Of a stretch of 64,000 nucleotides of DNA, positions 13,384-55,700 are shown one piece after another; position 1 is the stretch's first letter, and the number at the start of each line of letters is the position of its first letter. Source of the stretch: a virus. A program made the position numbers and the translations under genes. The notes below the pieces were generated by a model that saw nothing but the letters and a program-made list of their open reading frames with translations, did not search any database and was not told the origin of the DNA. Location of the stretch: the IMG/VR virus record IMGVR_UViG_3300020413_000006, positions 1-64,000 of that record, one strand, 5' to 3'.

Positions 13384-14107
13384 GTTTCACTTCAGATAAT
13401 TGAGGATTAGTTTCCTCAGGTGTTGTAATTTCAGAACCATTTATTTGCGGAGGAGTAAATTTACCACCCTCCATGATGTTAGCAACAGATCCACCCATTG
13501 CTTGTCTCATCTTTTCTACTCCTGCTCCAATAAGAGCAGAGTGGTGTACAGCTCCAGATAAGACTTGGACTTGATCATCAGGAGGTAGATTCATAATAGA
13601 ATCCATGTTACCAGTGCCAACGTGTCCAAAAGAAATCATATCGCAAGCAGCTTGTTTTGCCATACGACTGATCCAGTATTTCTTATCTTCCTCCTCATTG
13701 GTATCTAGATAATACTCTACTCCTTTAGATTTGTCTACCATCTCTTCCAACTGACCTGTAAAGTTAGCAATCTCTCGTTTACATACTAAAACTTTTTGCT
13801 CCCAGATAGTTCTATCGTAGTGAGCTTTCTCAATTTCAACTTCAACCATTTCCTTATCTAAAGGATCAGTCGCCAGTTTTAATTGTCTATTGAGTTTTTT
13901 AATATCAATAGCGTTCTTGTCAAGACGATACTGTAACTCCACTCTAGTGTTGTCTCTAGACTGTAGTTCTAGCAATGCTTGCTGTACTTTTTTAAATGGT
14001 GTTATCTGTGTCCCAACTACAAAATTCTGGTTTTGATATTTAGTTTGTCCACCTTCTAATTTGTACGAATGTTCTATCCAACCCTTTTCAGAATCCGAAA
14101 GTTCCAT
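13328..14107 (-). CDS. Hypothetical 259-aa helical/coiled-coil protein
   Basis: Long ORF overlapping both neighbours; coiled-coil N-half and YWISRMAKQAACDMISFGHVGTGNMDSI segment. Confidence 0.85.
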   Translation of the reverse strand: MELSDSEKGWIEHSYKLEGGQTKYQNQNFVVGTQITPFKKVQQALLELQSRDNTRVELQYRLDKNAIDIKKLNRQLKLATDPLDKEMVEVEIEKAHYDRTIWEQKVLVCKREIANFTGQLEEMVDKSKGVEYYLDTNEEEDKKYWISRMAKQAACDMISFGHVGTGNMDSIMNLPPDDQVQVLSGAVHHSALIGAGVEKMRQAMGGSVANIMEGGKFTPPQINGSEITTPEETNPQLSEVKHDIPKEKIRLQSSNKPKD

Positions 14108-17687: not shown

Positions 17688-20600
17688 TTAAACTATGCTC
17701 CAGTATCCACCACTGTTTATGGTAACAGTTACACCGCTATTTATAGTAATAGGACCTGAACTTAAACAGTTGTCTCCACTATTAACAGATGTGCTCTCTC
17801 CAATAGAGTTTCTATTACGCTTCATTACACCATATCTATCTATCCATTGCTTGTCTCCATCAGCACGAAGAACAACGGATCTTTGTCCGCTAGATAGACC
17901 CACAGATGATGTATTGATATTTAGACCGTTCGCTCCTCTAACTTCCATTCGGTAAGATGACTGTGTTTGGTCACCACCACCATAGATTGTCCAGTAACCA
18001 CCGTCACCATCAATAGAACCCATTCCAGTATTGTTATTAGATCTGAAGTAGAAGTTATCTCCAGTTCTAAGATATGTGTGTGAGTTGTTAGCAAAGTAGA
18101 ATCTTTCTTGTCCACCATCATCATTCAACCATGTGTTAACACTAGCACCTAAGTATGGAAGTGCTAATGCAGTATAACCATCAAGTAAGTCTGCGTTAAG
18201 ATTAGGACATACAGTTGTAGAACTAACAGAGATCGGTGCACTACCTTGTGCGACTGTAGATCTTATAGTATTTGTTGAACGAATGTCGCCCTTAACATCA
18301 AGTTTGTAAGATGGTGTACCACTACCAAAGTTACCCACACCTACATTACCACTTCTTGAGATTCTCATAGACTCGAAGAAGTCGCCAGAACCATCAGTTC
18401 CTTGTGTATAGAACGATAGACCTAGGTAATCACTATCTGTGTTTTCACAAACACCAGTAATCATTGCACGTCTACGACTTCCAGTTCTCCATACAAGAGA
18501 ACCTAAAGTATGACCCACAGTAAATGCTGTGTCAACTTGAATCAACATTGATTCTCCACCAGTTGCAGTCATAGATGCTGATCCATCACCGTCACCAGTG
18601 TTACCACCTTCGTCTACGTGGATACGTGCTGCAGGATTGGTTTCCCCAATACCTAAGCGACCACCACGGAAAGTGATATTGTTGTATGATAAGTAGGTTC
18701 CATTCCAACCAAAGTCATTACTATCATTACCAAATCTTATTGAACCTACGTTAGAGTTTCCTCTACCACTAATCTTAAGAACGTTTGTTGCTGCCTTACC
18801 AATATTAACACCATTAGATCCAGCAAGTTGTAATGAAGAAGCACCAGTATTATTGAAAGTACCTTGGTCAGCAGTTAAGTCATTAACTGTTAAGTGTCCA
18901 GAAGCATCTCTACGTGCAAGAGTATTTGCTGTTGCAGATGTTGACTGAGTATAACCATCAACATAGTGAGCGTCTAACTGTGATGATGCTCCATCGTTTC
19001 CTGCGTGCCACATGGTGTTACCATTGACAGTTAGGTCGTTTGCGTTAAATCTTAATGCACCATTACCATCACTTCCATTACCACCAGAGACGATCATTTG
19101 AACGTCATAGTTTGGTGCTTGACCTGATGATCTAAAGTCTATTGTTGGTGTAGTAGATACCGCTGCTTTACCAATCTGTAACTTAGCACCGTTTGCATTA
19201 TCACGTAATCCAATAATTGTGCTAGATCCACTAGAAATTTTATTAGATGATGATACAGTCCATTTTGTGCCAGGATTAGGTCCGAAGACATATATGTTTG
19301 GATTATTATTAGAACCAACAAATGCTATCGTTCCAGTTACAAGAGAGTATATTTCACCAGTTGTGTGTGTAAGTTCTTGAACACCGCCAGAACTATCAAC
19401 TACGATAGAACCAATGTTGTTTGTTGCCCCTATATCAGAGTAGATAGTATATGTTCCACCATTGTTGATGTTACCACCAACACCACTATTACAATGGAAA
19501 TTTGGAATGTATAGAGTATATTTTAGTCCTGTGTCATTAACATAGAAGTTCTCAAAGACCATCTTGTCTTGACCAAGAACCTCTGGTAAGAACATATCAC
19601 CAATAGGTGATGTAACTCCACCACGTGTGTCACCTATGTTATAACCTGTCTGATACCAAAGTCCTTGTGATCCATCTAATTTGTCAGCATCTAGACCTGT
19701 TCCAGCACCATCGTTACCAGATGACCATATCTTCTCCCAGTTAGAGTAGACTGCATTTATTCCACCATTACCTCTGATGTATAGATTGTTATTATCTGTG
19801 AATCCTAATTGAGTTGATGCAGTTCCAGTAGACTGTCTTCTGTAAGTTACAATACCGTGTGTAGTACCACCATCATTTAATGCTGTAGCAGAGTTGTTTC
19901 TTAATGCTGCAGCAACACCATTTGCTGCCTGAGCAGGAGATGGGTTTGATGTGAGTGATGCAGTCTCGTTAAATATTCTGTTTGCAGTATCAGCAGTACC
20001 AGATATAGAGATGTTGTATGTTACGTTTGCAAGTCTTGCAGGATCTAACGTACCAAAGATAATGTTGTTTGCAGTCTGATAGTAGATACCTTGGTTACCA
20101 TCTAGTCTGTCAGCGTTAAGTTCTGAACCAGGTCCTTGGTCAATTGAAACTTGACCATTATCATCAATAACAAATCCACCTTGATCTTGGTTAGCAACTG
20201 CTTGGTTAGCAACGTCCTTTCTAAATCTGAATACACCGTAGTTACCATATACACTAGCACTTGCAGTTAGTGCATTACCCTTTCTAATATCAATTTCAAT
20301 GTTACCAAAGGCACGATTGATTGATCCTTTAACAGCACTCAATACTGCAGAACTACCAGAACCAAGTTCACTTGGTATAGTTACAGAGAATGTTCCAGTA
20401 TAACCAGTACCAGAGTCAGTAACCTGTGCGGATGTAATTGCACCACCTGATACAACATATGTTGCACGAGCAACGTCTTGACTGGTAACAGAAACGTTAC
20501 CACCTTCCATTGGTAAGTTCTGATAAGTTCCATCTGTATATCCAGTACCAGCGTTAGTAATAGTAATACTGTCAATGTATGAACTATCTGTTACTGATCC

Positions 20601-23600
20601 ACCAATTAATATCGCATCAGCAGTTGTAGGTCTAATTGATTGTAATGCATACTCCCATGATGAATCACCACGTAAGAATGTGAATGAGTTTGCAGTACCC
20701 TTTCCTGCCATTCTTTCTGGGTCAATTGTACCAGCAACAATATTAGAAGCATCAATATTTGTTGATGTCAACTGTGTCCAGTTACCAGCATTTTGTGCTG
20801 ATGTATTAACTACTCTTGAAAGGTCAACTATTCTCTTTCTAGCATAGTTACCAGATGTGGTTGCACTGTTAGGAGATGTAATAGAGAACTGACTAGAGTT
20901 CAATAATGTTATAGTGTAGAATCCATCAGGACCATCACCTGTAGTAAAGTCAAAGAATTGTAAAGCACCGTTAGCAAGACCGTGATTACTCTCAGTGAAT
21001 GTTATTGTTGTTGTACCACTTTGAGAATAAGTTCCAGTTGCTAAGTTTGCTAATGCTTGGTCTACAATAAAGTCACCAGCGTCAAACTTAATATTGTTTG
21101 CAATCGCAATCGCAACTCTACCTTCTATCTGAGCAGAAACAACTGCATTGTTAGCAACACCACTAGGTGATGTCAATACCTGTACTGTTGGTTGCGAGTA
21201 GTAACCTTTACCAAGGTTTGTGATAGTAACACTAGTTACAACACCACTTGTTACATTACATGTTGCAGCAGCTTGAACTCCATTACTTGTGTCATCAGGT
21301 GCAGCGATTGTTAGGTTAAAGTTACCTGAGTATCCAGAACCACCGTTACTAATTACATAGTTAAATACAGCACCGTCATTGTATGATGAAACTGTACCAC
21401 GAGCAGTTGTAGAACTACCAGTAATAATGTCTCCAGAAGTAAACTGATAAGCACTGTTTGGTGTAAATGCTAGGAATTGACTTTCTAAGTCATTTTCTAA
21501 GATATAAGATATTGCTATACCAGCAGTTACAAATTGATGAGTACCAGAACCTTGATTAGTTAAAGTAATCTCAGAGTTTGCAGATGCATTAGATGAAGTC
21601 GCAGCAAGTTTGATTGTATTGTCATCAACTTTAATAACGTAGTAGACATTGTTTGTTGACAACCCACCAATTGCTGATGAACCTTCTGTATATGTTAACT
21701 GATCTCCAGTTGATGTACCGTGACCTGTGATTGTAATAGTATCAGCACCTGTATTAACAGAAGATGATGCAACGTTGAATGTAGTTGCTGTTGTTTGTAT
21801 CGCAATGTCACCAGCGTTTGCGTCTTCAATAGCAAGTCTTTCTGCTTGTGATGCAACAGATGTAATATTGAATGGACGTAATGCAGGGATTTGGTCAAGG
21901 TTAATCTTACCATTTGAAGTTAACTGAACTAGAGCAGATGGAACTGCGTTTGTTGAGAACGGTTGGTTTAGATATGGTCCTAAATTATTTGAAATATAAT
22001 CTTTAACAGATGCCTGTGTAGGTAGTAAGGAGTCAGATGCGAATGTTCCACCTAAGTTATCATCTTGTGAGAATCCTGTAATTGTGATGTCACCACCAAC
22101 AATCTTAATAGATGTAAGTTCTGAGATTGCAACAGTACCAACAAAACTAATAGCACCAGTTCTGTTGAAGATCGTAACAAAGTTACCAACTTTAAAGTCA
22201 CCAAATTCGTTGGTTCCTGATGTATAAACCTGACCGAATAATTCTTCTGCTGCTTCGTATGCACTTCCTAATCCAACACCACCGTTTTGTGGTAAAGCAG
22301 CGTAGGTGTTACCTGATCCAGAGTATTCCCAAGTGTGTGATGATGAGTTACATACAGATGGTCTGTGGAATTTAATTGCTAAACCTACAAGGGTAGTTAA
22401 TGGTTGAGAACCAGCTACAAAACCAGCATCGTTAGAAGACTGATATCTAACATTAGTGCTAGTATTCTTATAGTCCATAGACCTGTTGGTCTTGATCTTA
22501 GCAACAATCTGTGTACCAGCAGAACCAGAAATAAGTTCTGTCTCTAGAATAATGTGCTCTACAGCAGGATCAGTTGGAGTATGTCCATCAATCTTGATAA
22601 TATAATCTTCAATCGGAATGTTTGTTAGAGTTGTACCACTAACTTGGATTACCTGTCTACCAGTTGGTGTTCCATTTCCATCAGTGTCATCTACAATAGA
22701 ATCAATAACACCAATATCAAATGAATATGGTTCAGATCTAAATCCAGTAGCACGTAGAGAGTATGTACCAAAGTTAGACGCTGAGTTAGTAACAGATGCA
22801 TAACCACCAGACTGTACAAGAATACCATCTTGACAGAAGATAGCGAACACAGAAACTAACTGTGTATATCCATCATTACTAACGTTGTACGCAGTACCAC
22901 CAAAACAAATGATGGTGAATGCGTTAGCAACCATCGACTTACCTTGTGGATCAAACTGTGCAACGGTGTTACCCTGTGAATTCTGTTTTAAACCTGGTCT
23001 AGGAACGTTAGGTGTAGCAACCTTAGCACCATCAATTTCACAACCAGAACCACCAAGGAATGATATAAGTGAAGAGTTCTGAATATAAGGAGATGCTTCA
23101 ATAACTGGAAGATCTAAGAATACATTTCCAAGTGGGAAATTGTAACTATTATTTGATTGTTCTTGAAGTAAAGGATCAGGGGTTGTTACTGTTCCACTGT
23201 ATGCTGTAGCACTTGATAATACGTTATCAAGAATACCCCAGTTTGTAGTCAATGCAGATACAACGTTTGCACATTCTGGTTTACTACTATCTACAGTAAT
23301 AGAACCATTTGATACAGGAACAATCTGTGAGAATTGACCAGCTTCTAAATTATTTCTTATTGCGTCTATTGATAATTCTTTTGCTGCAGCAAACATTGCA
23401 CGACTGTACTGAACTTCATTGTTCAAGAATGCAATTGCACTACCACTAATGTATAGATTTGATGCTTCTACAATAGCAGAGTTACCACCATAACGTAAGT
23501 CATACTGGAATGCTCTACATATTTTCATTACGTCATCAATACACTGTTGATCGCCAGGTGCAGATGTTCTTGTAACACTTGACACACTACCCGCAGTAGA

Positions 23601-26600
23601 ACCGCTTCCTAAGGCAGTTGTAACAGTATCAAAGAAGGTTGTAATAGAAGATATAACAGATGCACAAGAAGGAGCAGATGTAACAGTTCTAGTAGCGTGT
23701 GACATGTTATCGTTAGCGATAGCAGTATCAAGGATTGTGAAGAATCCTTCAACTAGATTTTGTTCAACACTAGTTCCTTTGAGACCAGCGTTAGTTACTT
23801 GAGTAAATCCGTGATTACCTTCAATAGTGATTGTTTCACTAGCAGCTGCCTGTTTAGCAAGTCCTTTTGCTAATTGGAATACAGCACGGGACTCTGTTTC
23901 TTCCCCGTCTAGGAAAGTAGAGTTTGTGTATAGTTGTGCGTGATCATAAACTTGCTCGTTACCACCATGGTTTAAGTTCCATACGACAGCACGTAAGAAA
24001 TCACTAACGTCATCAATACAGTTCTGGTTTCCACCAGGCACATTGTGTGAAGGATTGTCTACGTTATATTGTTGAACTGATTCAAATGCAATTAAATCTA
24101 AGTTAGCAAGTATTAGAGTTGCAGCATAACCAGATACAGATTGTGATGCAGTATCTAAAGTGAGAGTATGATAATATTGTAATTTTGTAGAATATGGATT
24201 TCTGTATAATGGTAAATTTCTAGCTGCTTTAATACAAGCATCTTTTGCATTGTTGAATACTTCTACGTAACGATCTCTAGTTAATGAGAAACCAGGATCA
24301 ATGTAGAATTTTGCTTGATCATATACTCTATCGTTACCACCCCACTTAAGGTTATGTGCTACACACTTTTGTATAAAGTCTCTGACATCATCATAACACG
24401 CTGTACTTCCTGTAGGAATACTGTAACCACTATTGTTAGCAAGCATTTTATTGACTGACCAATCGGCAATCATATCTGCATTACCAAATAATAACTCAGC
24501 AGCATCAGCATACTTATTATCTGTTGGTATACTATTTGGAGTTCTAAATGGTTTTTGTAAATCTGTAAATGTTCCTACTGTTCCAGACTGTCCGTTAGCA
24601 GTGTTGTTAGCAAGGTCTAAGATGAATTTTCTATCATCTACAATATCTTTAATACCATGGACACCATTGACTGTTGAGTTACCAGAACTCGCAATAGTTA
24701 CTGTTGTTAATGCTTTCTTAACTGAGTTAGTTCCAGCACTTACAAATGTGTGAGTTGTAGTGTTAGAAGATACACCAACGTTAACAGTAAATGTATTTGT
24801 ATCCTTTGCAGTTATCTTTAACCACTTATCAAATGCAGGATCTCCACCTCTAGGATATGGGTGATCAGATGCACCGCTATCTTCAGCACACTGGAATACA
24901 AATGCACCAGCATCAAACTTAACTAAGTCTCCAACACTAAATCCGTGGTTACTTACAGTTACTACAAACACACCTGTAGCTGGTGTGTACGCTGCAAGAG
25001 TAGGAGTGTGTTGACTAAAGTTAGGATATAAATTATGACCTCTCTGACATACAACTGTTAAATCATCTCCACTAACAGACCATGATGTAATACTTCTTGC
25101 TATTGTGTCTGCGGCTTGTTGGAAGTTTGTTCCACCAATAGTAAGTGCACTACTACGAGTAGCGGATGATTCATAATAATATTTGACATATCCAACTGCC
25201 TCCTGAGCAATAAATTCTTGGTTAATTTTAATTGCTTCAGCACCATCTTTAAAACGGTCACTTTGACTAATCTTGTTGAATCCATAAGGAGAGTTCCTTA
25301 AGGATGATAAGACATAGTTGCAAGATGATATAACTGTTTGGTCACCAGTTGGGTTAATAGAAGCACCTATCTGACTGATATTACCACGAACAACAAACTG
25401 TAGTGAGTAACCATCTGCCCTTTCTATACGGTGAGTAACATATTTTCTTCCGTTTAAATCTGTTAAGTTATCAAGGATACTAACGTTAGAACCTGATGCA
25501 GTTGTTACGTCACTTGCAGTATCAATATTTGCTTGTTTTAGAACAAAGGTGATTGTTAGGTTAGAACTATTATATCTCGCAATACCAATACCTAGGTCAG
25601 TATTACTTGCAAGAGTTGGAGTTCCAGATCCTGTACTAAAACCATCTATAGAATATGTCTTACTAAATCTTTCATAACCAGCAGGGAAGTTAAATGTAAT
25701 ACCAGCTTCTGTAAGAGTTGCCCAGTTGGAGAATAATGTAGATGTTTTTGTGTTGTCTACACTTGATACAGTAACTGTAATTAATCCACCACTGATTGTA
25801 AATGATGAGTTTGTACCAGTACCAAAATCTATAGCACTATTCTGGAAACCATATACTTGAATCTCTTGACCAACTTCATAATCATGGAAATCTGATGATG
25901 TACTAGAACTCTGCAGAGTGAATACAGGACCATTATATGTTGCTACAGTATTCAAAGATGTATCAATCGTAGTAATTGATAATACTTTTTCCTGTATGTC
26001 AAATCTTTGGAATCCGTTTCCTGGTGTTGTTAGTGTTACTGTTACTGGGTTGTCAGCTCCAGAAGCATCTTTCTGTGTAGCGTCAGCAGCAGATGCAGCA
26101 AGTCTTATATAATCATCATTTTCTTTATAAACAAAATATGCAGTACCATCAACAAGTCCACCAATACCGCCCATTTTACTAGCACGATATATTATACCAT
26201 CTCCAGTTATGAATTGATGTTTGTTAATATAGATGTTATTAACTTCTGGCATAACATTACCAGAGTCAAATGTATGGAATCTATCATCAGATGATACACC
26301 AGTAATATCTTTTCTACCCTGAGTTACAGATACATTAATAGCGTTGGCATAAGTGTCATATAATGCAACACTGTTAGCGTCAACACTTCTTATATAATAG
26401 ACTGTGCCATCAATTAAACCAGGTAATGCTGTAGCGTTTTCGTCTTTATGATATGCAACAGCTGCACCAGTTCTATATCTGTGAGCTGTTAGTGTAATTG
26501 TATCATTTGCTGTATCAATATAATTACTGCTACCACGGAAAGAAACAAATTCTCTTTCACTATCAATAGTGTGCTGATAAATTTGATTAGATATAACTTC

Positions 26601-28067
26601 AAGTTCTGGTCTTAATGATTCAGCATCAACAACGTCAAATCTATCTGATACACTAGCATTGTTGAGGTCAGTAATTATATTTGCAGCAACATTATCATAG
26701 AATACTTTTTCAGCGTCTTGGAATACATCATTAACACCTGAGGTAATCAATACCGTGATATCACCAGTAGAATATGGTGATGCAATAGGACCTGTGAAGT
26801 TGACAGTCTGGATTGTACCAAGTGTACCAGATGATCCACCTTGTACGAAATCTCCAACTTCTAGAGTTGCATTACTACCTGTGTGGTTGTTAAATGTAAT
26901 CTTGAATATGTTATCACCACGGAACTTATCTCCAGCAACTGCAGGAATCTGTCTTAATTCTGGTTCATAGTATAATCTTTGCTTATCATCAAATACAAAG
27001 GCATACTTCCATGTATGGATTACTGTACTTTGTGGGTCTGATGAGTTTTGTAGTGCGTCTCTGAATACAACACCAAAGATATATGTTTCATTAGACGCCT
27101 TGATCATGTGACGATCCTGATTTGCAGGACGCATGATAACACGACGTAGGTTGTCACCAATTAGTGAACAGTTCCTAGGAAGTGAAATTGGGTTATCTTC
27201 TAGATACTCACCACCAGATACGATGATAGAAACGTATTCGTCAGTTGCTGTGGGCACAGCTTTCTGTAAACCGTAAGCAATCTGTGCTGCTTTCTTAACT
27301 GTTTTTACTGGTCTTGCAGCTGAACGACCATCGTTTAAATCACTACCAATAGTTTGTGATACATATACACGACCACCAGTGTCATTAGTAGCAACTTTAT
27401 ATACAAAGTCAGTGGTAGCAACCCTTCTAGACTGATCACTTAGAGGAGGTGTATCAGCAGTTGGGAAGAATGTAGTTCCAAAAGTAGGACTTGTTACATC
27501 TGTATCTTCAAAGTTAACTAAGTTTGGAGCACGAAGATTCAACGCAGGGTTGATAATAGTACTGATATCAAGGTTTGTAACCTGTGCAGTATCAGAAATG
27601 ATAGAACGAGTCGTTCTAATCTGACCTTCTACATCAAGTTCATACTGAGGATCTTGAGTATTAACACCAACACGAATGTTTTCCTGTGCGTTTTTGTTTA
27701 TGAATATTGCGTCTTTCTCTAATGCACCTTGACCCACTGACATTTCAATGGATGTGTCTCCTTGTATACTTAAGGATCTTACTCTTTTATATGATACGCC
27801 AGCACCCGCTGTGATGATGCTTGCATTTGAACCTGTAAAACTTAAATTATCGTCATCTACTTTCGTTACTGTATACTGTCCGTCTACTTCTCCACCAGAT
27901 GTGAAGTCAAGATATAAAGTTTCTTGTCCTATAAATCCGTGAGCAACCGAAACAATATTTCCCACACCAGCCGCACTTCGACTGTATGTGGCATTCGTCC
28001 AATTTCCTGTCGCTTTTGAACCAGAGGCTTCAATCCTTTGCTGGTCTACATTAAACTTTAAACTCAT
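17688..28067 (-). CDS. Giant tail-fibre-like structural protein (3459 aa): split pectate-lyase-like beta-helix, beta-barrel repeats, three phycobiliprotein/globin-like helical domains, fibre repeats
   Basis: RVYVSQTIGSDLNDGRS...VKTVKKAA beta-helix cap; LDADKLDG/LNADLLDG fibre repeats; WEKIWSSGNDG; C-terminal GPITINSGVTVTINSGGYWSIV adaptor motif. Confidence 0.85.
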   Translation of the reverse strand: MSLKFNVDQQRIEASGSKATGNWTNATYSRSAAGVGNIVSVAHGFIGQETLYLDFTSGGEVDGQYTVTKVDDDNLSFTGSNASIITAGAGVSYKRVRSLSIQGDTSIEMSVGQGALEKDAIFINKNAQENIRVGVNTQDPQYELDVEGQIRTTRSIISDTAQVTNLDISTIINPALNLRAPNLVNFEDTDVTSPTFGTTFFPTADTPPLSDQSRRVATTDFVYKVATNDTGGRVYVSQTIGSDLNDGRSAARPVKTVKKAAQIAYGLQKAVPTATDEYVSIIVSGGEYLEDNPISLPRNCSLIGDNLRRVIMRPANQDRHMIKASNETYIFGVVFRDALQNSSDPQSTVIHTWKYAFVFDDKQRLYYEPELRQIPAVAGDKFRGDNIFKITFNNHTGSNATLEVGDFVQGGSSGTLGTIQTVNFTGPIASPYSTGDITVLITSGVNDVFQDAEKVFYDNVAANIITDLNNASVSDRFDVVDAESLRPELEVISNQIYQHTIDSEREFVSFRGSSNYIDTANDTITLTAHRYRTGAAVAYHKDENATALPGLIDGTVYYIRSVDANSVALYDTYANAINVSVTQGRKDITGVSSDDRFHTFDSGNVMPEVNNIYINKHQFITGDGIIYRASKMGGIGGLVDGTAYFVYKENDDYIRLAASAADATQKDASGADNPVTVTLTTPGNGFQRFDIQEKVLSITTIDTSLNTVATYNGPVFTLQSSSTSSDFHDYEVGQEIQVYGFQNSAIDFGTGTNSSFTISGGLITVTVSSVDNTKTSTLFSNWATLTEAGITFNFPAGYERFSKTYSIDGFSTGSGTPTLASNTDLGIGIARYNSSNLTITFVLKQANIDTASDVTTASGSNVSILDNLTDLNGRKYVTHRIERADGYSLQFVVRGNISQIGASINPTGDQTVISSCNYVLSSLRNSPYGFNKISQSDRFKDGAEAIKINQEFIAQEAVGYVKYYYESSATRSSALTIGGTNFQQAADTIARSITSWSVSGDDLTVVCQRGHNLYPNFSQHTPTLAAYTPATGVFVVTVSNHGFSVGDLVKFDAGAFVFQCAEDSGASDHPYPRGGDPAFDKWLKITAKDTNTFTVNVGVSSNTTTHTFVSAGTNSVKKALTTVTIASSGNSTVNGVHGIKDIVDDRKFILDLANNTANGQSGTVGTFTDLQKPFRTPNSIPTDNKYADAAELLFGNADMIADWSVNKMLANNSGYSIPTGSTACYDDVRDFIQKCVAHNLKWGGNDRVYDQAKFYIDPGFSLTRDRYVEVFNNAKDACIKAARNLPLYRNPYSTKLQYYHTLTLDTASQSVSGYAATLILANLDLIAFESVQQYNVDNPSHNVPGGNQNCIDDVSDFLRAVVWNLNHGGNEQVYDHAQLYTNSTFLDGEETESRAVFQLAKGLAKQAAASETITIEGNHGFTQVTNAGLKGTSVEQNLVEGFFTILDTAIANDNMSHATRTVTSAPSCASVISSITTFFDTVTTALGSGSTAGSVSSVTRTSAPGDQQCIDDVMKICRAFQYDLRYGGNSAIVEASNLYISGSAIAFLNNEVQYSRAMFAAAKELSIDAIRNNLEAGQFSQIVPVSNGSITVDSSKPECANVVSALTTNWGILDNVLSSATAYSGTVTTPDPLLQEQSNNSYNFPLGNVFLDLPVIEASPYIQNSSLISFLGGSGCEIDGAKVATPNVPRPGLKQNSQGNTVAQFDPQGKSMVANAFTIICFGGTAYNVSNDGYTQLVSVFAIFCQDGILVQSGGYASVTNSASNFGTYSLRATGFRSEPYSFDIGVIDSIVDDTDGNGTPTGRQVIQVSGTTLTNIPIEDYIIKIDGHTPTDPAVEHIILETELISGSAGTQIVAKIKTNRSMDYKNTSTNVRYQSSNDAGFVAGSQPLTTLVGLAIKFHRPSVCNSSSHTWEYSGSGNTYAALPQNGGVGLGSAYEAAEELFGQVYTSGTNEFGDFKVGNFVTIFNRTGAISFVGTVAISELTSIKIVGGDITITGFSQDDNLGGTFASDSLLPTQASVKDYISNNLGPYLNQPFSTNAVPSALVQLTSNGKINLDQIPALRPFNITSVASQAERLAIEDANAGDIAIQTTATTFNVASSSVNTGADTITITGHGTSTGDQLTYTEGSSAIGGLSTNNVYYVIKVDDNTIKLAATSSNASANSEITLTNQGSGTHQFVTAGIAISYILENDLESQFLAFTPNSAYQFTSGDIITGSSTTARGTVSSYNDGAVFNYVISNGGSGYSGNFNLTIAAPDDTSNGVQAAATCNVTSGVVTSVTITNLGKGYYSQPTVQVLTSPSGVANNAVVSAQIEGRVAIAIANNIKFDAGDFIVDQALANLATGTYSQSGTTTITFTESNHGLANGALQFFDFTTGDGPDGFYTITLLNSSQFSITSPNSATTSGNYARKRIVDLSRVVNTSAQNAGNWTQLTSTNIDASNIVAGTIDPERMAGKGTANSFTFLRGDSSWEYALQSIRPTTADAILIGGSVTDSSYIDSITITNAGTGYTDGTYQNLPMEGGNVSVTSQDVARATYVVSGGAITSAQVTDSGTGYTGTFSVTIPSELGSGSSAVLSAVKGSINRAFGNIEIDIRKGNALTASASVYGNYGVFRFRKDVANQAVANQDQGGFVIDDNGQVSIDQGPGSELNADRLDGNQGIYYQTANNIIFGTLDPARLANVTYNISISGTADTANRIFNETASLTSNPSPAQAANGVAAALRNNSATALNDGGTTHGIVTYRRQSTGTASTQLGFTDNNNLYIRGNGGINAVYSNWEKIWSSGNDGAGTGLDADKLDGSQGLWYQTGYNIGDTRGGVTSPIGDMFLPEVLGQDKMVFENFYVNDTGLKYTLYIPNFHCNSGVGGNINNGGTYTIYSDIGATNNIGSIVVDSSGGVQELTHTTGEIYSLVTGTIAFVGSNNNPNIYVFGPNPGTKWTVSSSNKISSGSSTIIGLRDNANGAKLQIGKAAVSTTPTIDFRSSGQAPNYDVQMIVSGGNGSDGNGALRFNANDLTVNGNTMWHAGNDGASSQLDAHYVDGYTQSTSATANTLARRDASGHLTVNDLTADQGTFNNTGASSLQLAGSNGVNIGKAATNVLKISGRGNSNVGSIRFGNDSNDFGWNGTYLSYNNITFRGGRLGIGETNPAARIHVDEGGNTGDGDGSASMTATGGESMLIQVDTAFTVGHTLGSLVWRTGSRRRAMITGVCENTDSDYLGLSFYTQGTDGSGDFFESMRISRSGNVGVGNFGSGTPSYKLDVKGDIRSTNTIRSTVAQGSAPISVSSTTVCPNLNADLLDGYTALALPYLGASVNTWLNDDGGQERFYFANNSHTYLRTGDNFYFRSNNNTGMGSIDGDGGYWTIYGGGDQTQSSYRMEVRGANGLNINTSSVGLSSGQRSVVLRADGDKQWIDRYGVMKRNRNSIGESTSVNSGDNCLSSGPITINSGVTVTINSGGYWSIV
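17738..17745 (-). promoter_or_regulatory. Consensus T4 late promoter (TATAAATA) inside the 3' end of the 3459-aa gene
   Basis: Exact TATAAATA ~58 nt upstream of ATG 17680. Confidence 0.5.
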
Positions 28068-28638: not shown

Positions 28639-28646
28639 TATTTATA
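28639..28646 (-). promoter_or_regulatory. Consensus T4 late promoter (TATAAATA)
   Basis: Exact match overlapping the stop of the 2426-aa gene, ~22 nt upstream of ATG 28617. Confidence 0.75.
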
Positions 28647-46779: not shown

Positions 46780-46787
46780 TATTTATA
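46780..46787 (-). promoter_or_regulatory. Consensus T4 late promoter (TATAAATA) upstream of g8
   Basis: Exact match overlapping the g7 stop, ~22 nt upstream of ATG 46758. Confidence 0.75.
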
Positions 46788-49700
46788 AGGATCTTAGACG
46801 AACTTCTGGGAGAAGACTCACGTTTCCGCTTGTTGTCCTAGAGAATGGGAACTCAACTGTAAATGTAGTCGCTCCTGTGACGGTAACTATGTAGGTTCCG
46901 TCAAAACCTGTTCCACTTGTAAAGTCTAGATAAATTGTCTGACCTGTAGAGAAGAAATGATTACTTGATGTTGTTACTGTACACGCAGTTCCACTAGAAC
47001 TATAAGTTCCTGTTATCACAGCATGTTCTGCAGCAGTTGTTCCTAGATAACCCCTACCACCAGTTGCAACTGTTAAGGTATTACCAGAAACATCTTTTGC
47101 ACCAAATAAAATTCTTTCCGCATTCCATCTGTTTGGAGTAACAGTTGTATCATAGAATGGTATTAATACCTCACCCTCATCTGGGAAACCATTCTTCTGT
47201 GAGGAATTGTACCAAACATTTTTAAGATTGATAGTAGTTCCAGATTGAGAAAGTGTTGAGGTTAAGTAAGAGTTGGCAAGATTCTTAGAATTAGAAATAA
47301 TTCTATTTCTTTGTTTTCTTTCAATCGCCATAGGATGAGTTGGATTTACTGTAGGAGTTCCTTGAGTATATCCTGCACCACCATTCAAATTGATAACGTC
47401 AAGAACTTTACCACTACCTTGCTCAATAACAGTTTCTGCAAATGCACCTTCACCTCCACCACCTGTAAATACAAGGATTGGTGGAACTTCATAGTTTGAA
47501 CCAGGATCAGTGATATTAACCTGAGTTACCACACCATTTACAACTGTTGCAACAAATACTGCAGTTGTTGGTTTCAAACCAGTATATTCATAACTATCAA
47601 TCGTGATAGAACTAGAAATTTTAGCGATTGATCTATCAGAACCTTCACTTGCAATTTGCAATCTATCTCCTATATCAAGAGCATTGAATGTATTACTAAT
47701 TAATACGTCAGCAGAAGAACCTGTGAAGATAAACATATTACATGTTGACCCTGCTCTAGGTGCTTCACTAAACTCGATAATAGAACCAGTTAATGAATAT
47801 GCAACGCCAGGTTCCTGATATATTCCATTAAGGAATATTAGTAGATTGTTCTGTGCCTCTACTGATGGATTATCCGATTCTAATGAGAATGGTTCTGTCT
47901 CACTCTTCATAACAAAAGTTTTCTTAGAACTATCAAAGAATGGTGCAATCTCATCAAGTAAAGTTAACTTACCAAGATAGAATCCATAGAAGTCCATACC
48001 TGGTACTGGTGGTTCATTAAAGGTTAATGTGCTTCCTGTGTATGTGTATGACTCTGTTGTACCTTTAACTTGGAAAGTACTATTCAAGAATATTAAGAAG
48101 TTATCACTTGCTGGTAGTACTTGTGTACTACCGCCTACCTGTGCAGTAAATGTTGTATCAGTACCGTCAAATGTTACTGTATCAACTCCAATTTGGAAGT
48201 ATGGTTGAGATGCAGAAGTCCTAGTAATACCAGATAAATCCCCAGTCGTACCAACGTTCATAGTTATTGTTGTCGTATCTACAGAAGTTAGATTTATTGC
48301 AGTGTCATAGAATGGGTCAGTTGATCTTGGATATGTATGGTTAGTAGCATAGTTGTCACGTGCACATGTAAATGTCAATGAGTTAGCAGCGATCTTAATA
48401 CTTGTTCCTGCAGTCAAACCGTGACCAGAACCAATAGTTAATACTAGTACACCTGTACTAGGTACATAACTCGCATCAGTCACATTATGATTGACTATAG
48501 GTGATGCTCCAACGTTGACTGTGATAGTATTAGTGGATGTGTTTGTAATAGTAATAGTTTGTCCAGATACAGGGTCAGTAGATCTTGGATAAGTCTTCGT
48601 TGCTGTATTTCCGTCCATAGCACATGTAAAGGACAGTGCATTGTCAGCTATGGTGAGTGTGTTAGATGTTGATAGACCGTGACCATTAGAGGTAATTACC
48701 ATATTACCTGATGATGGAGTATATGCTACGTTTGTTACTGGATTTGGTAAGTTACCAACGTTACTTGTAACACCGTTTGCTACAGCAGATACGAATGTAT
48801 GTGCATAGTTACCACCTGACTGGACTGCATTACTTGCTGTACCGCCCGCCCATTGGTGAGTTCCAGAACCAACAGCTGTAGTAACTATATTCCATAGAGT
48901 GCTTATAGTGGATGCTACGTCTATACAACACGCAGTTGAGTATGATGTGCTTCCAGAGTCGTTACTGATTGTATTGTCTTTTATTTGTGTACCGACTGTG
49001 TAACTATTTGTAGTAACAGTAAGGTTACGCATAACCTCACGACATATATCTCTAGCGTGATTGAATACTTGTATAGACTCTGCTTCTTCATCTGCTAGGT
49101 GAACTGTAGAAACATAGAGACTTGCTGCATCATATGTTGCATCGTTTCCACCAAACTCTACGTTGTCAGAAACAGCATCAATAAGGATCTTAGTATCACG
49201 AATACACTTAACTTGATAACTGCTAGAGAATCCCGCATTGTTTGCCATCATTCTGCCATATGCAGTAGTAGCAATGAATTCCTGATTAGTTCTCATTAAT
49301 GATGCAGCGTCAGCACCTTTGCTATATGCATAGACACCGTATGATACAACTGCTCTTGTGACAGCTGTAGAAGTGGCACTCACAAAAGTATGAGTTGATG
49401 TATCAGATGATACACCGACATAAACAGTGAATGTATCATTTGTTACTTCATCAATTGTTAACCAAGCACCCTCTGCTGGATCTCCAACTCTAGGATAGGT
49501 ATGGTTTGTAGAATTATTATCTAAACCACAGGTAAATGTAAGAGAGTTATTTGCAAACTGTATTCTATCACCTTTAATCATTCCGTGAGAAGTTTTAGTC
49601 AATACCATCTTCCCATCAACAGGTGTGTAAGTGATACCAGTTGGTTGGAACTGATAAGTTGATAACCCAACCCATGTATGTGCGTCTGTGTTGGTAGGAG

Positions 49701-52700
49701 CAGTTCCGTTTAATGCATTGACTTCAATAGTAGTAGTTGCAATTGCCTCAACAGGTATATCTCTCATCTTACCTTGTGTACCCAGTGGGTCAGTAGCACG
49801 AGGATATGATGCAGTACCACCACCGTTGTAACCACAACTAAACTGTAATGATTCGTTTGCAATTCTAACTGTAGATACTGCCTTCTTAATACCGTTTGAT
49901 ACTGCTGATACAAATGTATGTGGATCAACGTTAGTGGAAGGGATAGTATCAAGAATCTGTACAGTGAATGTATTTGCAGTTACGTCAAATACTTGCAACC
50001 ATCTATCAGAAGCGTAGTCAGTAGAACGAGGATATGCCTTCTCTGCAGCAGCACCAGTAGCACCACCAAATCCACAACTGAATGTTATAGAACTATCTGC
50101 AAATTTAACTTGATCGCCATTTACAAACCCATGACTGTTAATAGTTACTACCATCAAACCTGTATTAGGATCGTATGTTGCTGTGGATGCTGTGTGAGTT
50201 GTTGGTGCCAATAAACCGTGACCAGAACCAATAGTCAATACCATGGATCCTGTAGCAGGATCATATGTTCCATTTGTAGGAATGAAATGCTTGACTAATT
50301 GTTCTCCAACACGAGCATCGGAAATACCAAGTACATCATTAGATGTGTATCCATTTCCTGCAGCATTTAGTACAACGTTACTAACCGAACCATTAGTGAC
50401 TGTAATATCAGCAGTACCACCTGTACCACTTCCAAGATTGTTCTTGAGTGGTACATTTGTATAAGTTCCATCGCTATATCCAGAACCAGGTGTCAATCCA
50501 TTAGTTACATCAAATGCTTTGAGTTCATCTCCTATCTGATCTAACTGGAAACTACCTGAGTAAGTCTGACGATCATAGTACATCGCTAAAACTTCAGTTC
50601 CGTCTAGAGGAGGTGTAAGGAACGTTATTGAATTATTAGCAAATGTATAAGTTGCTGGATTTGTAACTAAACCATTAGTTATTACAAGTAATTGTGACTT
50701 TGCAGCAGTCTTACCAATCTGAGTACCAATAGCAATACCATTTGTTCTGAGTAAGAATGTATCGTTAACACCATCAATATACATTCTGATTGTGTGTCCA
50801 ACACCAGTTCCTACTGCAGTCAGATCAATAGCATTTCCTCCCTCAGTTGTTGCAAGTTCTATATTATTTGCATCAACATATTTCACATAATATGTTCCGT
50901 TGTTTGATATTCCACCTATTGCAGTTCCAGTTCTATTATTTGGATAATTTCCTGTGTTTGAGGTAGGAAGAGTTGATGGATTGTCAATACCGTTTGTAAT
51001 AATACCAGATAATGTGGTTATTGCAGATTTAACGTCTGTACACCCTCCAGAATCGGTTGTAATGCTTAAATCAGTTGTTGGGACTATGGTTGTATATGTA
51101 CCAGCTGGTAAACTGTTTGTTACTGCTAGATTACATAAGTCTCTTGCCTTATTAAATGCAAATATTGTCTCAGTCTCTTCACCAGCAATGTGTGCAATGT
51201 AGTTTGCTGGATTTGTCCTTGTGACAGTTGATAAACTGTCTGAGCTTATCGCAGTTGTCACGATATTGAACAAAGTATCCATAGCACTATCTACAGTTGC
51301 ACATATCGCTGCATCAAACGTTACACCAGTGTTCTTAACTTGAGTGTATCCATGGTTTCCTGTGATTGTAATATCTTGATTGATTATAATAGATGCTGCT
51401 AGTTCTTTTGCTTTATTAAACGCCCATATTGCCTGTGTCTCTTCATTGTCTAGGTGTACAGTGTTAACGTATAAATTTGCTGCATCCCATACCTCACTAT
51501 TTGCACCATATGTTAAATTGTATGCGATTGCTTCAACAACATCTACAATATCGTCAATACAGTTCTGATCACCGCCAGGTACACCAGCAAAACCTGATGG
51601 AATACCAACTGTTCCATCTTGTAACATTTGATACACTGCTTCAGCAGCAATTAGATTCTTATTATCTTTAAGTAAATTTCCAGCATCAATATATGCGTTA
51701 CCTTGACTAACAACACCACCAACATATGAGTTAGTTGCTGCTAGTGTAAAGTAATTACCACCATACTTGAGATCGTTTGCCCAAGCAGCGATTACAAGTC
51801 TAGTATCTCTAGCACATGTCGCTCCACTGTAATTAAGTGATGGATACGCTGCATTTAAAGCTCCGATAGTCTCTTCAACAATATGATCAATGTTAGCAAT
51901 GATCAAATCTCTAGCATCTTGGAATCTATCTCCACCAGCTTTGTAAGTTACACGTTGACCTTCAAGTAAACCGTGGTTTGTAAGTGTAAGTCTATTATTT
52001 GATACATCTACAATGCTAGAGGATGACGCATCAAAAGTAATTGATCTATCACTAATGTCATCAATCTTATAAACGATACATGATAGGATTTTTTGAATAT
52101 CTAATAGTTGTCTACCAAATACTGATACCTCTGTAGGAACTGCTGCAGTGTAATCTGGTTTTGCTAGTGCAAAGTTATTGATTACAGATAACTTACCAGT
52201 ATTCCTTGCAGATGGTTTGGGCGTAACAAATGTTGTACCATTAAATGTAGTTCCTATACTATTTGTTGTTGATTGCCACCAGTCAGTATCATTACCAGCA
52301 CTTAAATTAAGGTTTGGTCTAGATCTATAGTCCTTCTTGACTGATTGTGATAGTACTTGTGTACCAACTACCTTAAATCCTGCAGGATGTGCAGCAAACT
52401 TAAGTGGATTCTTCCAATCGTTGATGTTTATTGAAGATGATACGTCATATGAGAATTCTTGGAATCTATTACTGTCATAAACACGTTGTTCATTAAGATC
52501 AAGGAATCCAGTGGTTCTTTCCCAACCAGACGCACTAATACTGATAGGAGAAACGTCAAAGACTGCATCTGCTCTGGTAAATGTATGAATTTGACCAAAT
52601 GCTGCAGTCTCTTCACCAAATACAGGTTCACCAATCTTAAACTCACCTTCTATAATCTCTACACTAACAACACGACCAGAGGCATCCCAGTTCTTAACAA

Positions 52701-55700
52701 ATCCATATGCAGTAAAGGAAGATGTTGATGCACCTTGATAAATTCTTTCTCCGATAGAGAAAGTTGCTGGTTTCATATATGCATTGATAACATCACCAAG
52801 GTCAATAGTTTCTAAAGTGAAAGCAGTCTGCCCTGTTGATATATCTCCTACAGGAGCACTAGTAAAGTTAATGAATGTTTCTGTATTTGCATTTGCAAGA
52901 GATGATGCTAATCTAATTTGGTTATCTGCTAATCCATTTGCTGTAGTTGCTGCAATGGCATAGTAAACAGTATTAGTTGCTAATGGTTCTGGGAACTGTC
53001 CAGTAGTCTCTATAAGAGTTACTTGTGTACCTGAGGGTATCTTTGCATTATATGGGAAGTTCAATGTGCTGCTAGATTGTAATCCAACAAAACTATGACT
53101 CACTTTTGCAGTTACAGTAGGTGCAGATGTAAATCCTCTACCAGGATTCTCAACAGTTACTGCCTGTATTACTTCATTCTCAATAATAGGTTTTAATGCA
53201 AATAAAGAACCTTGTCCACCAGTAAGTACGATTTCTGGTTGAGATACAAAGTTTGAACCACCATTCACAACGTCAATGTAATCAATAACCTGAGTTCTAA
53301 TCAACTGTAAGTTATATGTTGTGTTTAGCGATGGTTTAAGTGTTCTATCATGTGAATAGTTGTATGTGATATTATCACCACTAATCTTAAGTATTTTTCC
53401 AAGGTCTGAAGATTTAAGTAATATAGATGCACCAGTTCCAGTTTTTTGTTCAATGTTGATAACAGGAGCACTTTGATATTGTATACCAGCTGCTTCTATA
53501 CCAATAGATGTAACACTCTGGTTTTGTATTGTTGCATTCAATACAGCATTAATTCCATTACCACCACTTACTGATATTGTTGGAGCAGATAAAAATCCAG
53601 AACCTCCATTAGTAACTGTTACGGTGTCAATAGATGCATTGATAATAGTTGATATGGTTGCAGGATCAGCATGTGATAGTGTTTGAATTGTTATAGTAAA
53701 GTCTTCTGTACTATCACCGCCTGGTAACTTTGTACCATCAAAAGTAATTACATCACCTAGTGAATATGTACTACCGCCACCAGTAACAGATACTGTGTCT
53801 ATTCTTCCATTACCATCTGTTGTAAATGTAAATGTTGCTCCAGATCCACCAACGGGTGAAACAGTGGACTGTGTTACTCCAGTGGTTGTTGTAGTTGCAG
53901 TAAATGTTCCGTTACCCGCAGGTTGAGACGTAAGTGAGACAGTTGCGACAGATCCATAGTAAGGATCGTCAAATACGACACTTGGTGCGGATCTGTAATT
54001 ACTACCCGCATTTGTAACTGTCACAGAACTTAATTTACCACCCCCGCTTACAGCAGTGGCAACGATTGCTTGAGTTCCACTTATCGCTTGTATAGAACCT
54101 TGAGAGTCAGAACTGTATACATTATTGGTTGCAGCAGTTCCAGTACTGAACATGATGTAACCTTTATTACCAGCACCAGTTCTAGTGTTCTGTAATGGTT
54201 TTATTCTTAATACAGAGTTAACTGGGTTCCATGATATTACTTGAGCTCTTGCAGTTTGATTTCCTTGAGTTTCTTGAGATATAACGATCTCATTAGGTAC
54301 GAATGAACCAAATACGTTTTGAAGCGTTAAATCAACAAAATCAGGTAACGTTACAACACCGTTAGGTAAAGATGAAGGATTATAACCAGATCCATCATTT
54401 GTAATTGATACACTAGATAATATTCCAGATATAGTTGCTACAGCAGTAGCACCAGAACCAGATCTTGTAGTTCCGTTGAATTTAGGTAAAGATGAGTAGT
54501 TTCTGCCAGGATCACCAACTGTAATTGTTTTTATACCACCTGTAGCATATATTGAGTTTGAAGCATATGATACGCCAACAGTATACCCTGCTTCTGGTTC
54601 TAGAGCAGTAATGTACTTAAACGTGGTATCTGTCTTTTCTGTAACCGTGTTTGTTCCAATTACAGGATCATTAATAGTTGTAAAGTAACTACCAGTTATT
54701 GCTCCCTGTAAATCGAAATAATAGAAAATACCAGGCAATCCTGTTATCTTAATCGTAATAGAGTTCTGTTCACTGGTTACAGAGTCTAATACTTCACTAG
54801 TAACGTTTTTATAAGTGAATATGTCTGTATTTGCTGGATCAAAGGTAAATGCTAACTTTTTACCCGCATTACTACTATCTGTAGTATCAAAGGTGTATGA
54901 GTGACCATCTATCAACTGTAACTTAGCTTCTTGAACATAAACTTCCGCAGTTGTGACATTTGCAGCTGCAGGAGTTGCAAAATTACTCTTTATCGTAAAT
55001 CTACGTAAAGTTTCTGTTCTAATAACTGTATAGTCTGTCTTATTGTAAGACGTAGGTGAGACACCTGAGATATTGACTGTATCACCGATATTGACTTGAT
55101 GTGCAAGATTCGTATGACATACTGCTTCTCTTTGTGTTTGTGTAAGTGTAATACTGAAACTAGAACCTCCTGCATTACCAAGGTTGATGTCTGCAGCAGA
55201 TATTGTATCTCCTACGTTATATCCAGTTCCTGTTGAAGTAATCGTTACTGCAGTTACCGCATTTCCAGAAACAACAATAGTTGCTTGTCCACCAATACCA
55301 GATCCACTAGTTGTTATAGGTACGTTGACATATGTGCCATTTGCGTAACCAGATCCACCAGTAATACTATTCCAACCACCTTGATATAGATTTCCATCTG
55401 TACGTGTTCTTACATACGTCCATGTTAAGGTTCCGTCTGTTACAGTTCCAGAAGTGTGTGTAGGTGCATTTCCAGAACTAGAATCCGATGTTCCTGTATC
55501 TGCTGCTTTATAAACTCTGTTATCTACGTAAACAAGATCCTCTTTGTTGTACGCAGTACTCATTGTCCACGCAGAAAGAAGTTTTAAGCTCTGTAAGTCG
55601 AAATATTTGAAATGATACTTATTACTGATAATCTTACTGAATAGAGTTCTGGTATTTGCGTTATCAGTCACATCAACTGTAACTTGATCACCCACAAGTA

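Follow-up and report, generated by a model that had tools for sequence, protein, structure and literature searches.

The phycobiliprotein rod beta subunits CpcB and CpeB are free, disc-building proteins of 17-20 kDa, in which an N-terminal X-Y helix hairpin serves to form alpha-beta monomers and Asn-72 of the PGGN motif is gamma-N-methylated. ApcE, a cellular phycobilisome component, combines one phycobiliprotein-type domain with linker repeats in a large multidomain protein; its bilin is attached without a lyase, and a loop is inserted in its bilin-binding domain. Globin-coupled and RsbR-type sensors, haem-based or ligand-free, have a globin-like fold that serves as their sensor module and is linked to further domains. 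BBAG globins, photoglobins and photocobilins are phycobiliprotein paralogues outside phycobilisomes, free cellular proteins of unknown function, some of which have the CXRD motif. According to the accessible part of PMC10151467, CXRD is the phycobiliprotein chromophore motif, whose cysteine forms a thioether to the A-ring of the bilin and whose other two residues hydrogen-bond the chromophore. BBAG globins, bilin-binding proteins of non-photosynthetic bacteria found in association with genes for haem oxygenase and bilin reductase, bind bilins without a lyase when they carry CXRD, and phages are mentioned in that part only for bilin reductases (PMC10151467). In the open full-text literature, a coverage that excludes subscription journals, we found no report of a phycobiliprotein-like domain in cyanophage virion proteins. 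Here we describe three such domains, D1, D2 and D3, in a tail-fibre-type open reading frame (ORF) encoded in 64,000 nucleotides of viral DNA (hereafter the window), positions 1 to 64,000 of IMG/VR record IMGVR_UViG_3300020413_000006.

The record is 75.5 kb long and ~41% complete. The stretch to which a first-pass annotation, made from the sequence alone, had drawn attention (23215-25260) has the Prochlorococcus phages P-HM2, P-HM1 and MED4-213 as its closest named relatives (76-77% nucleotide identity); the source virus is a P-HM2-like T4-type cyanophage. The ORF (P0001, 3459 aa) lies at 17688..28067 on the minus strand, as do all features of the window given below. It matches phrog_5342, 'tail fiber protein', at E 0, and PHM2_096, the orthologue in P-HM2, bears the annotation tail fiber protein. 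D1, D2 and D3 are paralogous helical units of ~150 aa each. Judged by sequence profiles, they belong to a family homologous to phycobiliproteins and are most like CpcB and CpeB. With these rod subunits the phage units share the globin-like fold, the cysteine and aspartate of the CxRD site, the column of a second cysteine and, in D2, a PGGN before the first cysteine; their best sequence matches are to them, and likelihood favours grouping the two together. Unlike CpcB and CpeB, the phage units have no X-Y hairpin, show a deletion of seven residues between PGGN and cysteine, and carry Asp for Arg of CxRD in D1-D3. They are embedded, nested and repeated in giant virion proteins, lie 2.4 changes per site from 18 phycobiliproteins, and P0001 stays below the Pfam cut-off. 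ApcE resembles the fibre in that its phycobiliprotein-type domain (4xxi_A, fold match Z 13.9-14.0) is part of a larger protein with several domains, whereas the phage protein has several nested units. Photocobilin matches the predicted model of D2 at Z 11.5. Globin-coupled and RsbR-type sensors follow at Z 10.8 to 10.5, below all phycobiliprotein rows and with no sequence similarity detected.

Homology, fold and nesting of the fibre modules

With D2 as query, 79 related viral loci were gathered, and 43 non-redundant complete units were aligned into a profile (A2) in which N12, I16, C40, D43 and Y70 are invariant. Against PDB sequences, A2 matched 118 distinct sequences at E <= 10, the best being phycoerythrin beta (7s96_B, E 9.5e-6). 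Among the 60 matches listed, 59 bear the name phycoerythrin, phycocyanin, allophycocyanin or CpcB, the exception being 'Bacterial fluorescent protein beta'. Profile positions 2-59 align to phycobiliprotein residues 36-100, with the invariant cysteine on the cysteine of A-A-C-L-R-D and the invariant aspartate on its aspartate. A profile-profile comparison by hhalign with 20 cyanobacterial phycobiliproteins gave a probability of 96.2% and E 2.1e-9 over 101 columns; this reference set drew on 14 PF00502 places in one cyanobacterial metagenome-assembled genome (MAG), which had been reached through a locus found with the haem oxygenase of P-HM2, and its proteins were named by NCBIfam. Thus the phycobiliprotein-like identity proposed in the first-pass annotation is borne out by both kinds of profile search. 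In Pfam, PF00502 is the only related family matched by P0001, and the same PF00502 region is matched in several paralogues with 13.8 to 26 bits. D2 alone scores 12.9 bits, the best of the single units; a gp7-like sister ORF in the window reaches 15 bits, rising to 23.6 with the scores of adjoining stretches added up, and the relative P0056, with 26 bits, exceeds the cut-off of 22.2.

Across 301 cyanobacterial genomes sampled from the whole phylum, A2 had matches in only five (four CpeB and one CpcB, 20.5 to 26.4 bits), and no phage-type unit was found above 26.4 bits. In a joint alignment of 73 phage units and 18 phycobiliproteins, a quick maximum-likelihood tree puts 2.44 changes per site between the two sets (SH-aLRT 100 for this branch), which rules out a recent copy of a host cpeB. 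This tree attaches the phage units near the split of alpha and beta subunits. We do not rely on that placement, since a tree holding them with CpcB and CpeB has a log-likelihood 20.6 above that of the free quick tree (p-AU 0.82), in a test that was not blind, the group having been named after the matches were known. We read the phage units as an old or fast-evolving phycobiliprotein offshoot with beta-subunit traits, and as a putative phage-specific branch of the phycobiliprotein and bilin-globin superfamily in a new setting.

The AlphaFold model of D2 (predicted local distance difference test, pLDDT, 93.3) has the phycobiliprotein-type globin-like helical fold from helix A to helix H. With this model, the rows listed by Foldseek were all phycobiliprotein entries but one (TMq up to 0.73). 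The top eight matches in VIA-align were phycobiliproteins or ApcE, with Z falling from 14.9 to 12.0, led by phycoerythrin beta 5aqd_M (Z 14.9, root-mean-square deviation 2.4, 137/148 residues aligned); photocobilin came next (Z 11.5) and then haem sensor globins (~10.7). The unit starts at the equivalent of phycobiliprotein helix A: all alignments begin at phycobiliprotein residue 31-37, and the X-Y hairpin is not present.

Several of these measures count against the assignment. P0001 itself matches PF00502 with 13.8 bits, below the cut-off; Foldseek E-values are all above 1e-3 (best 1.7e-3); and a Z of ~14 is, by the tool's own note, also the best value of unrelated helical models. A single-sequence phmmer search of residues 930-1640 against PDB returned only histone noise (E 1.4). 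Because helical models can reach such Z values by chance, the homology claim rests on the sequence profiles, with the fold in agreement; because of the Foldseek values, the fold claim leans on VIA-align and the profiles. The nesting described below is likewise limited to sequence and predicted secondary structure as its support. Even so, we consider homology to phycobiliproteins together with the nesting highly probable.

By profile and model, residues 938-1621 form three globin-fold modules set one inside another like Russian dolls: D2 is predicted to interrupt D1 before its last helix, and D3 to be interrupted behind its first helices by D1, D2 and a beta-rich insert. Within P0001, D2 alone as a phmmer query recovered both D1 (i-E 5e-13) and D3 (i-E 1e-8), and the family hidden Markov model (HMM) marked residues 1186-1306 (4e-29), 1313-1452 (6e-54) and 1499-1619 (2e-34). 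Reading from the N-terminus, the helices that open D3 (residues 938-967, profile 1-30) lie at 25167..25256 (unit profile E 2.2e-4; helix 6-37 of a 711-aa model). The beta-rich insert within D3 follows at 24558..25145 (~residues 975-1170; strands 46-241 of that model), with weak fold matches to the beta-barrel of the phage phi92 endosialidase (Z 7.8, 76 residues aligned, 22% identity) and to the E1 FCCH barrel (Z 7.7). The main part of D1 is found at 24141..24515 (residues 1185-1309, profile 1-127, Cys1224 in C-Y-D-D; profile E 9.6e-31, HMM 3.7e-29). D2 is contiguous and nested in D1, at 23700..24131 (residues 1313-1456, profile 3-153, profile E 4.4e-50); its site reads PGGN-QN-C1350-I-D-D. The last helix of D1, with the second cysteine Cys1468, comes after D2 at 23610..23669 (residues 1467-1486; helix 540-557 of the 711-aa model, residues 1469-1486), and its orthologous stretch matches profile 126-151 in P-HM2 (i-E 0.004) and reaches E 1e-3 in G001, a further IMG/VR record. 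The main part of D3 closes the array at 23205..23558 (residues 1504-1621, profile 35-151, Cys1509 in C-I-D-D and second Cys1599; profile E 6.2e-30). The two pieces of D3 are thus ~536 residues apart, with the beta-rich part and then D1 and D2 between them.

The 711-aa AlphaFold model (mean pLDDT 78.6) agrees in its secondary structure with this layout, its order being helix 6-37, strands 46-241, D1, D2, the last helix of D1, and D3. A fold search with the model returned almost only D2 (its residues 379-527), and the three-dimensional packing of the split pieces of D1 and D3 is therefore a prediction. The peptides quoted in the first-pass annotation and its five cysteine positions are all present in the translation of 17688..28067(-), with codons at 24396-24398 (C1224), 23664-23666 (C1468), 24018-24020 (C1350), 23541-23543 (C1509) and 23271-23273 (C1599). 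Its further statements that a second cysteine is absent from D2 and that the sites read CxDD, with the arginine of CxRD lost and its aspartate kept, hold for the translation as well, and the discontinuous units that it implies have the support of the profile matches.

The putative chromophore site and its variants

In all three fibre units the cysteine and aspartate of C-x-D-D are aligned with Cys-82/84 of phycobiliproteins and the aspartate of their CxRD. The first cysteine column is common to all 91 rows of the joint alignment (18 phycobiliproteins and 73 phage units). The second column holds a cysteine in 7/7 CpcB and CpeB sequences and in 46/73 phage units, while alpha-subunit and allophycocyanin rows are gapped there; this cysteine of the beta-153/155 column is the one present in D1 (C1468) and D3 (C1599).

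The PGGN of D2 had been likened to the Asn72 motif of beta subunits, with the reservation that it stands 3 residues from the cysteine and not ~10 as in phycocyanin. In the hhalign alignment it falls on the beta-subunit PGGN, followed by a gap of seven residues before the cysteine, which accounts for the spacing. Within the fibre the motif is limited to D2, the equivalent positions of its neighbours reading PTGS (D1) and PGDQ (D3); P-G-G-N-Q-N is a trait of a minority CxDD subfamily and not of the family at large. Disc assembly, as in rods, appears unlikely for nested units that have no X-Y hairpin.

How the site varies can be seen in a larger set. Over 1.84 billion representatives, the A2 profile found 1384 proteins at E <= 1e-3 (965 at E <= 1e-10), and the following counts refer to the best 150 of the 1384 metagenomic relatives. 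These are mostly giant proteins with 1551 domain matches in all; a single protein has as many as 34 matched stretches, and coverage by units reaches 81% of a protein. P0062, for instance, has 34 matched stretches in 5984 aa, and P0157 is 81% covered. In 1482 first sites, the cysteine is conserved in 98%, the arginine at +2 in 93% and the aspartate at +3 in 99%; Tyr70 is kept in 98%. By type, 1370 sites are CxRD, 45 CxDD and 17 CxED. D1-D3 belong to this minority CxDD subfamily. A conserved disulfide is ruled out as the reason for the first cysteine, since the second is present in only 207/574 of the units that cover its region.

A comparison of 16 isolates and the window placed the CxDD type in context: a CxDD unit occurs in 15/16 isolates, usually exactly one, with three in P-HM2 and four in the window. 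Other motifs met in isolates are CxTD, CxHD, CxLD and DxLD.

Distribution, second carrier gene and cpeT

The domain is also found in a second virion protein of the window, as the first-pass annotation had it. A gp7-like baseplate ORF of 4261 aa (46783..59568) contains, by the family HMM, two whole units and one split unit, with the same nesting trick as the fibre. One whole unit, of the CxDD type (51232..51693, profile E 6.6e-57), is nested in the split unit, whose pieces lie at 51712-51927 (profile 1-74) and 50974-51195 (profile 75-151); the other (48859..49314, profile E 3.7e-53) is of the CxRD type and reads K-C-I-R-D. In addition to the units, this ORF has a YHYH domain (PF14240, E 1e-30) and weak matches to FlgD Tudor-like, Baseplate_wedge and CBM_5_12. 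The ORF next to the fibre gene (28642-35922, 2426 aa) is of the baseplate-wedge type (phrog_32294, E 0), with Laminin_G_3 at residues 449-590 (E 1.7e-17) and a weak N-terminal match to Mtd_N; a Pfam scan of it at E <= 1 gave no cupredoxin family.

In the phage records and cyanobacterial genomes searched, the family has so far been seen only in cyanophages and there in virion genes. With D2 as tblastn query, 318 of 50,697 phage records were matched, and all 318 are named Synechococcus, Prochlorococcus or Cyanophage. Together with the 98% conservation of the cysteine in 1482 sites, this speaks against a domain equally common, without its cysteine, in phages of non-phototrophs, an alternative raised in the first-pass annotation. 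P0157 as query matched 251 records, 242 of them with Synechococcus, Prochlorococcus or Cyanophage names and 9 named 'Marine virus'. P0088, which has three units and also non-domain parts, matched 455 records, 440 of them named Synechococcus, Prochlorococcus or Cyanophage; the other matches (11 Marine, 2 Bacteriophage, 1 uncultured and 1 Pelagibacter) do not distinguish between its domain and non-domain parts. Two unit-rich partial proteins, P0193 and P0222, on contigs of 2.2 and 5.5 kb, are labelled Candidatus Nanopelagicaceae MAG; either phage DNA assigned to the wrong bin or a freshwater occurrence outside cyanobacteria may lie behind this label.

P-SSM2 stands apart within this group. Its P0088 matches were rejected as units, being located outside them, and tblastn with P0157 matched only the non-domain end of that query. 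The P-SSM2 homologue of P0088 (record 216546-219228), a 617-aa ORF, had no profile match below E 1 (hmmsearch --max). Since P0088 has units and this homologue has none, the units behave as insertable modules. The P0088 matches of S-SRM01 were also rejected as units, as inferred from an empty profile search only.

To examine gene company, we scanned 25 phage records, namely 24 named isolates and G001; the sample is non-random, drawn mostly from match lists, and its members are interrelated. The domain is present in 21/25 records and, in a loose first-look profile scan, absent from P-SSM2, S-SRM01, P-SSP7 and S-RIP2. CpeT (PF06206) was above cut-off in 19/25 records at E <= 1e-3. In many cyanomyoviruses, short CpeT-like ORFs of 134-165 aa match PF06206 as two weak stretches, so that ordinary annotation would miss them. 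Two such ORFs, at the usual genome position in P-SSM7 (13416-13832) and S-ShM2 (15536-15958), pass when the two weak PF06206 stretches are summed (28.6 and 23 bits), and we therefore rejected an absence of cpeT from these two phages. No CpeT was found in the four domain-less records, the podoviruses P-SSP7 and S-RIP2 and the myoviruses P-SSM2 and S-SRM01, in the latter two not even at E <= 10. Thus cpeT accompanies the domain in 21/21 records and is found in 0/4 without it (Fisher p ~8e-5); for the 23 myoviruses alone the figures are 21/21 versus 0/2 (p ~0.004), and in both comparisons the rows are not phylogenetically independent. The accessible part of PMC10452541 counts cpeT in only 31/153 cyanophage genomes.

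Bilin synthesis is supplied by the phages themselves where the host is the phycobilisome-less Prochlorococcus. A reductase for bilins (PF05996) is encoded in 11/25 records, comprising 9/9 named Prochlorococcus myoviruses, G001 and 1/13 Synechococcus myoviruses, and haem oxygenase in five (P-HM2, MED4-213, G001, P-SSM2 and P-RSM6). P-HM2, MED4-213 and G001 have both genes in the same genomes, not adjoining the fibre gene. In the record of the window, cpeT, bilin reductase and haem oxygenase were not found, which at ~41% completeness is uninformative. The benefit of bilin genes in Prochlorococcus phages is called unclear in the accessible part of PMC2984593.

A possible light-dependent function and its alternatives

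Light-dependent adsorption has been described for close relatives of the source virus. According to the accessible part of PMC6628666, adsorption in the dark fails for P-HM2 and P-HM1, occurs in smaller numbers for P-SSM2, and takes place for P-SSP7 and P-GSP1. The light effect on S-PM2 is given there as independent of photosynthesis, with reference to Jia et al. 2010, and light-sensitive tail fibres are one option named by the authors (PMC6628666). The unit profile matches P-HM2 at 6 places and S-PM2 at 11, and P-SSM2 and P-SSP7 at none; P-HM1 has an orthologous region.

We propose that the modules would be loaded with bilin during infection. The bilin would be supplied by the host or by the phage's own haem oxygenase and bilin reductase, as encoded by the nearest isolates, and would be attached by a thioether at the conserved first cysteine. 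This first site might be loaded autocatalytically or by host lyases, and CpeT, the T-type lyase of the phage, might act on a second-site cysteine. On the mature fibre the pigment would then be outside the cell. The most likely use of pigmented modules in fibre and baseplate would be a light-dependent change that gates adsorption, as in P-HM1, P-HM2 and S-PM2. Taken as a whole, with its mechanism, we give this explanation slightly less than an even chance. Its parts differ in strength. The homology, the fold, the alignment of residues, the distribution and the company of cpeT are results; the loading, the pigment of particles and their response to light are proposed on that ground. Bilin binding by the family seems somewhat more probable than its opposite; for the three CxDD units we lean mildly against it, the exchange in CxDD removing the propionate-binding arginine. 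A role of the modules in light-gated adsorption is a doubtful though reasonable suggestion. Equally speculative is the idea that the cyanophage particle might itself be a biliprotein, whose modules derived from phycobiliprotein beta subunits would be chromophorylated during infection with the help of the phage CpeT and serve as a photoreceptor for adsorption; in phages of Prochlorococcus, the source of the bilin would be their own haem oxygenase and bilin reductase.

A number of observations weigh against a pigmented fibre. D1, D2 and D3 all have Asp in place of the arginine of CxRD, D2 is without a second cysteine, and that second cysteine is kept in little more than a third of the wide-set units. 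In the isolates and the window, the first cysteine is kept in 77/86 units, less strictly than in the wide set. The three units of P-SSM4 (record 70000-77400) have neither cysteine, their sites reading QxAR, KxTD and VxNN, and this phage nevertheless keeps a CpeT-like ORF and a bilin reductase. P-SSM2 has bilin reductase and haem oxygenase but no domain, so that supplying it is not the sole purpose of these genes. The site of T-type lyases is, as stated in the accessible part of PMC10452541, the beta-153 position, and not the near-universal first cysteine. Moreover, the company of cpeT and the domain may reflect no more than a near-core status of both in this phage family, the link to the phenotype comprises four to five phages and is confounded by their relatedness, and pigment in cyanophage particles or in these proteins is so far something we infer.

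Some of these features also speak for the main rival explanation, an apo structural or adhesion module. The phycobiliprotein-derived fold would then be a rigid helical spacer or receptor-binding knob without a chromophore, its Cys, Asp and Tyr kept for folding or for contacts in the fibre. The loss of the arginine in D1-D3 and of the second cysteine in D2, the retention of P-SSM4 units without both cysteines, and the varied isolate motifs (CxTD, CxHD, CxLD and DxLD) all fit such a module. So does the free duplication, splitting and nesting of units, which resembles that of other domains decorating fibres and reaches 34 matched stretches per protein. We also found no report of coloured cyanophage particles in the open full-text literature, subscription journals lying outside this coverage. 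However, the residues conserved in the 1482 sites (Cys 98%, Arg 93%, Asp 99%) are the exact phycobiliprotein ligand triad; in a mere spacer, at ~15-20% identity to phycobiliproteins, one would expect it to have drifted. The first cysteine is not half of a conserved disulfide, its would-be partner being limited to 207/574 units, and the co-occurrence with cpeT is perfect across the 25 records. An apo module is a serious possibility, though we would not expect it to prove correct.

The pocket might alternatively use its cysteine and acidic residues to bind another ligand. Metal ions, molecules of the host surface, and haem or a different tetrapyrrole are candidates, and the Arg-Asp pair would be replaced by two neighbouring aspartates in units of the CxDD type. 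Haem-binding sensor globins are the next-best fold matches after the phycobiliproteins (Z 10.8 to 10.6), and the conservation of CxDD in 15/16 isolates, usually once per genome, suggests a distinct, selected chemistry. Against this, no haem-binding globin family was matched by sequence, where similarity was to phycobiliproteins only, and the conserved residues fit a bilin site rather than a proximal-His haem site, the residue at the His position itself not having been examined. We consider another ligand improbable. A chance or convergent resemblance of helical bundles, without common descent from phycobiliproteins, could be argued from Z values of ~14 that helical models often reach against unrelated chains and from single-sequence searches that are not significant, but is next to excluded by profile-to-sequence (E 9.5e-6, 59/60 listed matches named phycobiliproteins) and profile-profile (E 2.1e-9) similarity, by the recurrence of the same PF00502 region in several paralogues, and by Cys, Asp, PGGN and second Cys all standing in register.

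The modules bear on two puzzles: what senses light in the adsorption of S-PM2, P-HM1 and P-HM2, independently of host photosynthesis, and why cyanomyoviruses carry cpeT and Prochlorococcus phages bilin-synthesis genes. A phycobiliprotein-derived module with the chromophore triad on the adsorption apparatus, always accompanied by cpeT in the records examined, is a candidate for both, and with named residues both become testable at the bench. Small and robust bilin-binding scaffolds for use outside cells might be derived from the units. Even if they are apo, they clearly exemplify how a fold from host photosynthesis has been taken into the virion, in an unusual nested architecture expanded to dozens of copies per protein. 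Prochlorococcus is without standard phycobilisomes. If the proposal of pigmented modules is true, it would give cpeT a function and supply a reason for bilin genes in phages of such hosts, and the particle would be the first light-sensing virus particle; the finding itself would be categorically new if particles prove to be pigmented photoreceptors.

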